Assembly (NCBI GenBank): GCA_965208905.1
Contig: OZ242365.1
Location: 608,001-672,000 of the forward strand
Origin: Nitrosopumilaceae archaeon
GTDB taxonomy: Archaea > Thermoproteota > Nitrososphaeria > Nitrososphaerales > Nitrosopumilaceae
DNA length: 64,000 bases
Direction of reading: 5' to 3'
Positions 5,018 to 6,609 of this stretch are shown here, piece by piece (positions within the stretch are counted from its first letter, which is position 1; each line of letters starts with the position of its first letter). The translations under genes and the position numbers were made by a program. A model generated the notes under the pieces. That model ran no database searches, had not been told where the DNA came from, and saw nothing but the letters and a program-made list of their open reading frames with translations.

Positions 5018-6490
5018 CTATACGGCAGTCACTCTGGACAAAGACAAGTACGGTTCATACTGCAAGCACGGGGGTTCCCGCATCCACAATACATCACACG
5101 TCACTCCAGAGGACGACGGTGCATGATACATCTCGTTCCCCGGTCTGTGCTTGACGTTTCTCAGGGGAGCTAATGCGAGAACCCTCCACGTCCAGACACC
5201 CCTTGTACAATGGGTGTTGCCGGTATGGTCCGGCAAGTTTCGTAAGTTTAGTTGGCCATGCCTAACCCCCAGGCCGAGTTTCTTCAGCCCCGCATCCTCT
5301 ATGTTTGAGCCTACATTACAGTCGGCATGATACGTGTGGCCACATTTTTTACACAAGAACTTTCTACCATCCCGGTTATCCTTATGTGTATAACCGCACG
5401 AGTAGCACCGTTGGCTCGTATACGCTGCCGCAACCCAAATTATCTCGCCAGCCAACTTGTACGCCAACAGTAATGCCAACAGCCCCCAGCACTGCTCCAG
5501 GATGGCCTTATTGAGACCAGATTTCTGCGCAACGTTTTTGCCGGGTTTTTCTTTGGTACCTTTGGCAGATTTTGCCATGTTTTGTGTAGGAAGTTTCTCA
5601 AAGGCTGCATGTGTGGTGCTGTTCGATATAACGCGCGATATTTTATGCGCGGTGGTCTTTCGAATGTTTGCAGCTTTGCGTTTGTTCTTGGCTGCACGTT
5701 TGCTGGCTTTGGCCCACCGTCGAGAACCAGGTTTACGATTCGCATAGTCGGGTTTATGCCTGCGTGACGCTATCTTTTGTGCCTTAGAGGCTGTTTTTTC
5801 GGCGTTGTTTATGCGGCGTGCCACCTTTTCGGGTATTATTATTACACAGTCAGGTGTGGCCACATTACCAACATTCTGGTCTATACCAATAACAGTCGGT
5901 TCCGTCACGGTTGGCTTCTCATCGGGTATATCACAGGATATGGTAATCCTCCACCCGCCATCCGGTAGTTGAAACAGTTGGGCCGTCTTGTATCGGTAAT
6001 TCAAGACGGGAAACTCCCGCGACAGTTTAGCCTCGCCCATCTTGGCTATCTTGATTGTACGTGTATCGGTGAAGCGCGCTTGGCCGACGGTACCATCATG
6101 TGTTATCGTCAACGGGATGGAGATGTGACCTCCATATTTCTTAAAGTGCGGTTCACCAAACTCTGCCTTGGGTTTGATGTTGACGGCCTTCAGCTTCTCT
6201 GTTTCCACATATTGGTCATAATGCCTGCCCAAGTCATGTAATATTTGGCGCGTCACCCCGGATATGGATTGACGCATCCAACGCGGACCCGAATGGTTGC
6301 GCAAGTCCGTATACCACGCGTTTATCCTACCACGCGTAGTGTTGACCCTCCCAGCTCGACGGTACTCCTCCTTGAAGGTTTCCAATAGTTTGTTATGCAC
6401 GTACCTGTCCATGCCGGCCTGTCTGGCCAACATCTCCTTCTTGAACCCTTTACGGAATCCAACGCCGAATGTGTATGTGCGTAGTACCAT
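5018..6490 (-). CDS. tnpB: TnpB RNA-guided endonuclease (RuvC + Zn ribbon)
   Basis: N-terminal DRYVHNKLL helix; RuvC D (IGIDQN), E (AFEKL), D (HADCN); [17 protein letters not shown] reads through the 3' TIR. Confidence 0.93.
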
Positions 6491-6567
6491 TAGCGTACAG
6501 TACGGTTTACATGTTTAAAAAGATAGTTGAGGTGTGATATATGGCACCCGTCCTTACGGGAGGAACC
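5052..6567 (-). mobile_element. Non-autonomous TIR element (IS6-like ends) carrying tnpB
   Basis: Ends GGTTCATACTGCAAGCACGGG (5052-5072) and revcomp GGTTCCTCCCGTAAGGACGGG (6547-6567); perfect 8-bp direct repeat ACAAGTAC at 5044-5051 and 6568-6575. Confidence 0.85.
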
Positions 6568-6609
6568 ACAAGTACCAATAGATAAATTTGTCTATGTAGT
6601 AAATTATTT

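Follow-up and report, generated by a model that had tools for sequence, protein, structure and literature searches.

A TnpB carried between IS6-like inverted ends in a Nitrosopumilaceae archaeon, with a putative target motif beside its target-site duplication

TnpB is the ancestor of Cas12, and its accepted role, the restoration of a transposon after scarless excision, has been worked out for IS605 and IS607. The subject of this report is a tnpB element in a 64,000-nucleotide stretch of the genome of a Nitrosopumilaceae archaeon, an ammonia oxidizer (GenBank assembly GCA_965208905.1, contig OZ242365.1, positions 608,001 to 672,000, forward strand; hereafter the window, to which all coordinates without a genome label refer). 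Elements of the IS200/IS605 and IS607 types are without terminal inverted repeats (TIRs) and target-site duplications (TSDs), and in IS200/IS605 the Y1 transposase TnpA moves the element at a tetra- or pentanucleotide abutting the left end (PMC13565253). The IS6 family has ends that start with GG, makes an 8-bp target duplication, and includes clades h and i with a zinc-finger extension; IS6/IS26 elements measure 0.79 to 0.88 kb and encode a helix-turn-helix DDE transposase of 213 to 254 amino acids (aa) (Varani et al. 2021, PMC7986276). In both respects these sources agree with a first-pass annotation of the window, made from the letters alone, which had held that TIRs and TSDs are foreign to IS200/IS605 and IS607 and that GG-starting TIRs with 8-bp TSDs typify the IS6 family. 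Its further view, in which TnpB between TIRs belongs mainly to eukaryotes (as Fanzors) and a prokaryotic parallel would be new, is not supported. Six branches of prokaryotic DDE-associated TnpB (DDE-1 to DDE-6), with inverted terminal repeats in all of them, were described by Altae-Tran et al. (2023, PMC10691335), together with solo TnpBs whose ends are nearly identical to those of transposase-bearing copies and for which movement in trans was inferred; in a supplement legend, the end of "DDE-5" is noted as having a "TA motif 8bp upstream". A 2026 review likewise lists TnpB with DDE transposases of ISL2, IS630, and IS1031, surrounded by TIRs, and describes Fanzors as having the 5′ TSD as part of the transposon-adjacent motif (TAM) and the 3′ TSD in the RNA scaffold (PMC13565253).

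We propose, with a probability of roughly 0.7, that the window element is a nonautonomous IS6-like element carrying an OMEGA module (a TnpB nuclease with its guide RNA), that it is moved in trans, that a putative TAM lies directly 5′ of its TSD, and that its guide would derive from the right end (RE). It resembles the DDE-associated branches in being TIR bounded, with a solo TnpB that shares its ends with transposase copies, and in the placement of the gene, since tnpB ends within ~250 bp of the transposon end in those branches and the core ends ~200 bp from RE here (PMC10691335). The only partner named in the available text of that study is IS630, whereas the partner here is IS6-like, the branches being compared by description only. 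With IS6/IS26 the system shares GG-starting ends and an 8-bp duplication, and its autonomous relatives have a catalytic domain that matches Pfam DDE_Tnp_IS240 and a zinc-finger N-terminal extension, as in clades h and i (PMC7986276). It departs from IS6/IS26 in that these relatives are 1442 to 1631 bp long, encode 388 to 390 aa with a SWIM and Zn-ribbon N terminus, score below the cut-off of the NCBIfam IS6 model, and make TSDs of 8 or 9 bp, and in that tnpB has replaced the transposase gene of the window element. As in IS1341-type (tnpB-only) members of IS200/IS605, a lone tnpB is followed by a 3′ region, here a candidate RNA, that runs to the element end, there are multiple copies, and a motif stands 5′ of the left end; unlike in IS200/IS605, there are TIRs, an 8- to 9-bp TSD separates the motif from the left end, and the genome has no Y1 TnpA (PMC13565253). 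Carriage of a TnpB-family nuclease by a DDE-type TIR/TSD transposon also recalls Fanzor1 in eukaryotic TIR DNA transposons. In Fanzors the TSD contributes to both TAM and scaffold (PMC13565253); in the present element a variable TSD leaves the conserved motif on its outside, and the guide would open with the 3′ copy of the TSD.

The element measures 1516 bp (window 5052-6567) and has inverted ends of the GGTTC… type. The terminal sequences are GGTTCATACTGCAAGCACGGG at 5052-5072 and, at 6547-6567, GGTTCCTCCCGTAAGGACGGG in reverse complement; as inverted repeats the two ends agree at 16 of 21 positions. The 8-mer ACAAGTAC is duplicated exactly at 5044-5051 and 6568-6575, abutting both ends. A single long open reading frame (ORF) lies between them, on the minus strand, with its start at 6490 and its stop at 5018. 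The product scores above the cut-offs of Pfam OrfB_IS605 (36.4 bits; cut-off 30.5), Pfam Cas12f1-like_TNB (48.2 bits; cut-off 26.3), and NCBIfam NF040570, guided_TnpB (147.9 bits; cut-off 100), and aligns full length to the ISDra2 TnpB structures 8h1j and 8bf8 (residues 15 to 407). The RuvC triad can be read in the translation as D204 (IGID), E298 (AAFE), and D390 (HAD), and a C4 zinc ribbon as C362/C365/C380/C383; motifs RuvC-II and RuvC-III also align to a solved TnpB-like chain. The description given in the first-pass annotation, an intact TnpB with RuvC D/E/D and a Zn ribbon as the only gene between inverted ends abutted by an exact 8-bp duplication, is confirmed. Six of the eight full-length copies in the host genome have an intact tnpB ORF, which is broken in the other two. 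Among the six, the ratio of nonsynonymous to synonymous substitution rates (dN/dS) is 0.14 to 0.23 in 15 of 15 pairs (dS, 0.15 to 0.39), and tnpB evolves under purifying selection.

The host genome, a single closed contig of 2.21 Mb that is 99.57% complete, matches the element in 15 places: eight full-length copies, one interrupted copy, one 355-bp derivative with an internal deletion, and fragments. Outer boundaries are identical in all eight full-length copies. Their 8-bp flanks are identical in four (four different 8-mers), agree at 7 of 8 positions in two, and do not match in the last two, one of which is part of a composite described below. Shared boundaries combined with differing TSDs identify a mobile family and are more than would arise by chance. 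The orthologous locus of a sister genome (G001/G006) lies beside the same tRNA-Leu gene and is without the element. Reading ggacaaac-GCAAGTCC-caatag, it holds one copy of the 8-mer, GCAAGTCC, which has diverged from ACAAGTAC by 2 bases. The first-pass annotation had suggested looking for repeated copies with the same boundaries and different TSDs, and for an empty allele with one 8-mer; both were found, the former as eight full-length copies of which four have perfect, distinct 8-bp TSDs. It had also held that internal IS605- or IS607-type boundaries in homologous copies would speak for a tnpB insertion sequence (IS) having once entered a preexisting miniature inverted-repeat transposable element (MITE); the copies of six genomes end instead at GGTTC-type TIRs with 8- to 9-bp TSDs. 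We call these copies family A; among them, four distinct sets of GGTTC-type TIRs occur, and the duplications are always 8 or 9 bp long. Within the genus, 6 of 10 genomes have family A tnpB, and its TnpB was found in 1 of 151 genomes of an order-wide sample, that one being the host genome. An IS630-like element of sister genome G006 (L029:4361-5983 and L034:5071-6899), whose transposase has 409 aa, is nested once in the RNA region of a family A copy and once in a short GGTTCC-ended MITE.

Neither the IS200/IS605 nor the IS607 type of transposase was detected in the host genome: Y1 TnpA (PF01797) has 0 matches in this 99.57%-complete closed sequence, with control genomes that do match, and serine recombinases (PF00239, Resolvase) also have 0 matches. 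A search of the host genome for the TIRs, allowing ≤5 mismatches, returned 78 sites, which resolve into family A, a second tnpB family (family B, described below), and an element termed C1. In C1 (genome 926302-927837), a decayed transposase gene lies between one TIR of the A type and one of the B type. The gene is frame-broken, and three of its frames match residues 1 to 386 of an intact 388-aa transposase of sister genome G010 (E, 9e-97). C1 also forms part of a composite (G000:C1:924780-927837) in which a family A copy is followed by the 8-bp spacer AGCGTTGA and then by C1, the whole being flanked by the direct repeat TTAAACTC. Because this repeat surrounds the composite, the right end of the family A copy and an end of C1 were used together as transposon ends, and the pair looks as if it had moved as one unit.

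Intact relatives of C1 were found in sister genomes. Five copies in G010 and one in G005 are 1442 to 1482 bp long, have the TIR GGTTCCTCCCGCAAAGACGG, and are bounded by perfect 8-bp TSDs in 6 of 6 cases, while G007 has three identical copies of 1631 bp with perfect 8- or 9-bp TSDs. Their transposases, of 388 to 390 aa, match Pfam DDE_Tnp_IS240 with 31.7 to 36.1 bits (cut-off 27). Their best NCBIfam match is IS6, at 76 to 84 bits; for transposases of this SWIM-DDE type taken together the range is 76 to 103 bits, under the 125-bit cut-off. An N-terminal SWIM finger and Zn ribbon are present in a host-genome paralogue. Size and the SWIM domain are not IS6 traits, and for this reason the partner is termed IS6-like here rather than assigned to IS6. 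In G007 a single TIR type is common to a full trio: the autonomous IS, a tnpB element of 1548 bp, and MITEs of 119 bp. The shared ends with C1, the intact autonomous relatives, and the absence of Y1 and serine TnpA from the host genome all support the earlier suggestion that an archaeal DDE transposon family moves this TnpB in trans. The same annotation had looked to autonomous copies carrying both transposase and tnpB; intact transposase-bearing relatives do exist in the sister genomes, but those copies are without tnpB. The 119-bp MITEs (L071-L086) share their IS6-like ends with the autonomous IS of G007. They are inserted at 13 or more different sites in G002 and G007, three of them common to the two genomes. 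In sister genome G006, an intact SWIM-DDE gene lies in a repeated unit of at least 3.8 kb that is present in three copies (L054-L056) and also holds a second, unrelated transposase-like ORF of 397 aa.

The ends of family A are also occupied by a second nuclease lineage. Family B (for example, G000:C1:239554-241169, with 13 further sites) is a tnpB-only element of ~1.6 kb with GGTTCC ends, present in the host genome as 12 full-length copies and 2 short derivatives, with perfect 8-bp TSDs in 10 of 14. Relatives in four other genomes are likewise bounded by TIRs and TSDs. The A and B TIRs differ at 2 to 3 of 21 positions. The family B product, of 522 aa, is highly divergent and TnpB/Cas12f-like: it matches the Pfam TNB domain with 28.3 bits (cut-off 26.3), and its AlphaFold model, although poor (pLDDT 52), retrieved Foldseek matches that were all Cas12f/TnpB (best E, 1.5e-09), a result used only for calling B TnpB-like. 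BLASTP of family B against family A gave no significant similarity, and hhalign of the small A and B alignments gave only E 0.0025 across 72 C-terminal columns. Two unrelated TnpB lineages therefore occupy one transposon family. Short derivatives of A and B, 355 to 585 bp in length (G000:C1:539996-540350, 626859-627354, and 999540-1000124), keep both ends, the 3′ RNA region, TSDs, and the same flanking motif. They may thus serve as guide-RNA elements in their own right, and the 355-bp derivative is matched by a contig from a metatranscriptome.

The flanks of both families carry a motif on one side. For these counts each element was oriented by its tnpB, and at the upstream (left) end the bases adjoining the duplication on its 5′ side were read; these are conserved, unlike the bases outside the opposite end. 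Left flanks of family A in the host genome show TT in 9 of 9 cases (TTG 6, TTA 2, TTT 1), and those of family B show TTA or ATA in 14 of 14; a mirrored right-end control in the same genome gave 1 of 9 (A) and 1 of 14 (B), and the genome-wide frequencies are 0.020 for TTG and 0.040 for TTA plus ATA. Over all genomes, 24 family A insertions from 6 genomes read TTG in 12, TTA in 6, TCA in 3, and TTT, TTC, and TGT in 1 each, and 23 family B insertions from 5 genomes read TTA/ATA in 21 and GCA and CAC in 1 each. All three TCA cases come from the G010/G003 sublineage and have perfect 9-bp TSDs. Of the family B exceptions, the GCA case has a perfect 9-bp TSD and the CAC case no recognizable TSD. Omitted from the counts were the composite copy whose left end abuts C1, a G006 copy without a left TIR (L028), copies for which no TIR pair was found (L118 and L120 of G010; L157 of G002), and truncated copies (L034/L124 and L009-type fragments). 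The motif stays at the edge of the duplication for 8-bp and 9-bp TSDs alike, and the sister genome (G001/G006) has it at the empty site as well.

The tnpB core ends at about 5246-5254, and the ~200 nucleotides (nt) from there to RE appear to be conserved as RNA. The frame of the ORF tail differs among copies, so this 3′ region is not conserved as protein, yet when the four TIR types are compared, no part of the element is more conserved than a 60-nt stretch of this region (0.89, versus 0.74 to 0.85 for the coding sequence). RNAalifold predicted stems with compensatory changes in the region, and the RNA-like conservation reaches to within ~40 nt of RE in every lineage. An Rfam scan of window 4400-7000 returned only two tRNAs and no family for the candidate scaffold. 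Within it, pairing of an invariant GGGTTCT with the RE tip was predicted by one RNAalifold run on 16 distinct sequences, while a second run prefers a local hairpin; no two-sided covariation was found for the pairing. A 3′ pseudoknot has been described for prokaryotic omegaRNAs (PMC13565253), and it is speculative, on the strength of the complementarity, that GGGTTCT is the corresponding strand. In two metatranscriptome libraries, contigs cover tnpB and cross the RE junction (4878-5073). No contig from the public runs joins across the element, and those runs accordingly give no evidence on its presence or absence.

Taken together, these observations suggest the following scheme. An OMEGA module, consisting of tnpB and the conserved 3′ RNA-like region, would have replaced the transposase gene, and the SWIM/Zn-ribbon/DDE_IS240 transposase of a matching autonomous IS would act on the element in trans. 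In the host genome the matching IS survives only as a decayed copy, so that the element may now be immobile there. A transcript would run through the right end, giving a guide made up of the duplicated 8-mer followed by flank sequence, and the motif 5′ of the duplication would be the TAM of TnpB (TTG/TTA or TCA for A, TTA/ATA for B). Since the empty site consists of the motif, one 8-mer, and the flank, and a right-end transcript of the 8-mer and the flank, the empty site would be a perfect TnpB target; the occupied site would match the guide for only 8 nt. TnpB would then cut empty or vacated alleles, and recombination would copy the element back in. The strict motif at the left end is probably the joint result of a weak intrinsic TTR bias of the transposase and the retention of TAM-adjacent insertions.

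The features of the element are collected in Table 1. The insertion lies between genes for tRNA-Asp (window 4459-4536) and tRNA-Leu (6609-6695), 41 nt upstream of the latter, and the A/T-rich stretch from the insertion site to tRNA-Leu is still present. Elsewhere in the window (44288-45406, minus strand), a 373-aa rve-type (IS3/IS481-like) transposase ORF, one of 13 identical copies in the genome, appears to represent a separate, recently active IS family.

Table 1. Positions of the tnpB element and its associated features in the window (LE, left end; RE, right end)
Feature	Position	Strand	Remarks
Putative guide flank, right end	5032..5051	-	GTACTTGTCTTTGTCCAGAG on the tnpB strand; inferred from the TnpB/omegaRNA layout (PMC10691335)
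TSD copy, tnpB-downstream end	5044..5051	.	ACAAGTAC; tnpB strand, GTACTTGT
TIR, tnpB-downstream end (RE)	5052..5072	.	GGTTCATACTGCAAGCACGGG; stop point of 8/8 full-length copies
Candidate omegaRNA scaffold	5052..5254	-	Conserved non-protein region from tnpB core to RE
Invariant GGAGGGTTCT (GGGTTCT)	5178..5187	-	Complementary to the RE tip (GGAACC/AGAACC); possible pseudoknot strand
tnpB core coding sequence, 415 aa	5246..6490	-	ORF continues through RE to the stop at 5018
Possible archaeal TATA box	6514..6521	-	TTTTTAAA; ~30 nt upstream of the tnpB ATG; conserved among copies; inferred only
TIR, tnpB-upstream end (LE)	6547..6567	.	GGTTCCTCCCGTAAGGACGGG on the tnpB strand
TSD copy, tnpB-upstream end	6568..6575	.	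ACAAGTAC
TAM-like motif immediately 5′ of the duplication, TATTG on the tnpB strand	6576..6580	-	From sequence; also in the empty site

Several observations weigh against the proposed scheme. The host genome yielded no intact cognate transposase between GGTTCC ends: the 13 SWIM-DDE genes that are intact there belong to other elements, whose ends differ, an inverted-repeat search around them returned no GGTTC ends, and repeated ends were seen for the element holding one of them. A dS of 0.15 to 0.39 between tnpB copies implies that there was no recent burst. The TAM is putative, being read from flank sequence, and the motifs were defined after inspection of the data, so that binomial P values overstate the case. 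The metatranscriptome contigs are assembled, break at the repeat, and may include DNA carry-over; they are silent on transcript start, 3′ end, and strand. Furthermore, IS6 family members are described as replicative cointegrate formers (PMC7986276), which removes the rationale of repair after excision for a TnpB in such a family. The behavior of tnpB-less relatives is a further point on this side, and it bears directly on the first of the alternatives to be weighed. Under that alternative, which we consider unlikely, the left-flank motif is a target preference of the IS6-like transposase, and TnpB is passive cargo with no link to a TAM. TTG or TTA does occur beside the TSDs of elements that carry no tnpB (TTG in 3 of 9 autonomous IS copies, TTG or TTA in 4 of 4 perfect-TSD MITEs), TTA-N8 stands at one end of C1 and of L067, and TIR type covaries with TnpB sublineage between genomes, so that targeting specified by the transposase and targeting linked to TnpB are not separated except where A and B meet in the host genome. 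In that genome, however, A and B have different motifs despite near-identical TIRs, of which C1 carries one of each, and this argues that the motif follows the nuclease rather than the ends. In the tnpB-less elements, moreover, the motif falls on either side and is far from universal, whereas the tnpB-upstream side holds TTG/TTA in 18 of 24 family A insertions, with 3 more TCA, and the family B motif in 21 of 23, against the 1 of 9 and 1 of 14 of the right-end control. A motif that is one-sided and oriented by the cargo would not be expected of a symmetric transpososome.

An active role of TnpB in targeting, in which its binding to the TAM positions the DDE transposase for a staggered 8- to 9-bp cut beside the motif in one orientation, seems improbable to us. 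It would account for a motif that is near-universal, sits exactly at the TSD edge, and is also found beside perfect (young) TSDs, and the presence of the motif at tnpB-less MITEs in tnpB-holding genomes is what action in trans predicts; but no evidence points to a contact between TnpB and the transposase, 6 of 9 autonomous IS copies inserted without the motif, and retention or selection accounts for the data without a new activity. If true, such TnpB-aided targeting would represent a forerunner of Cas12k-type transposon targeting, guide-independent and protein-motif-directed, and would mean that TnpB benefits a replicative, nonexcising transposon. We see little chance that the TnpB copies have been exapted, for instance as regulators, or are decaying and no longer serve the element. 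The copies have diverged, the ORF is broken in 2 of 8 full-length copies, and the host genome has no intact cognate transposase, as would fit such a history, yet the RuvC D/E/D residues and the Zn ribbon are intact, purifying selection is seen across 6 dispersed copies, and the copies remain within mobile-element ends with TSDs. Least credible is the view that an IS605/IS607-type tnpB element was once inserted in an IS6-like MITE and the chimera then spread, leaving the TIRs unrelated to TnpB biology. Something similar may be the historical origin of the arrangement, and the TnpB core resembles that of IS200/IS605. Nevertheless, no copy has internal IS605/IS607 boundaries, the RNA-like region extends to within ~40 nt of RE in every lineage, one tnpB lineage occurs inside four distinct TIR sets of the GGTTC type, the unrelated TnpB of family B is arranged in the same way, and the host genome has neither a Y1 nor a serine TnpA.

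With respect to earlier work, elements of this kind are already known, and the geometry of family B had been glimpsed: the "DDE-5" TA motif 8 bp upstream of the end (PMC10691335) has the geometry seen here. In the portions of PMC10691335 available to us, an IS6-like partner, TSDs of 8 to 9 bp, a motif acting as a TAM and abutting the TSD, and lineage-specific TTG, TCA, TTA, or ATA are not stated for its branches. A literature search for a pairing of TnpB with IS6 found no report, although the figures, tree, and additional files of PMC10691335 may bear on this point. As far as these searches show, what is new is the IS6-like partner and the lineage-specific motif that adjoins the duplication, 5′ of it, at the end upstream of tnpB.

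The nonautonomous IS6-like reading places two unrelated TnpB lineages in a duplication-making transposon family that, by analogy with IS6, may not excise, and both lineages keep the geometry of motif, target, and guide that makes an empty site a target. The puzzle is that a presumed excision-repair nuclease is kept, under purifying selection and with TAM-adjacent placement, in relatives of replicative IS6 elements. One archaeal genus offers a compact, testable system of autonomous ISs, tnpB derivatives, MITEs, and empty sites, which can be used to ask whether, in DDE transposons, TnpB is a drive against empty alleles or an influence on the choice of target.

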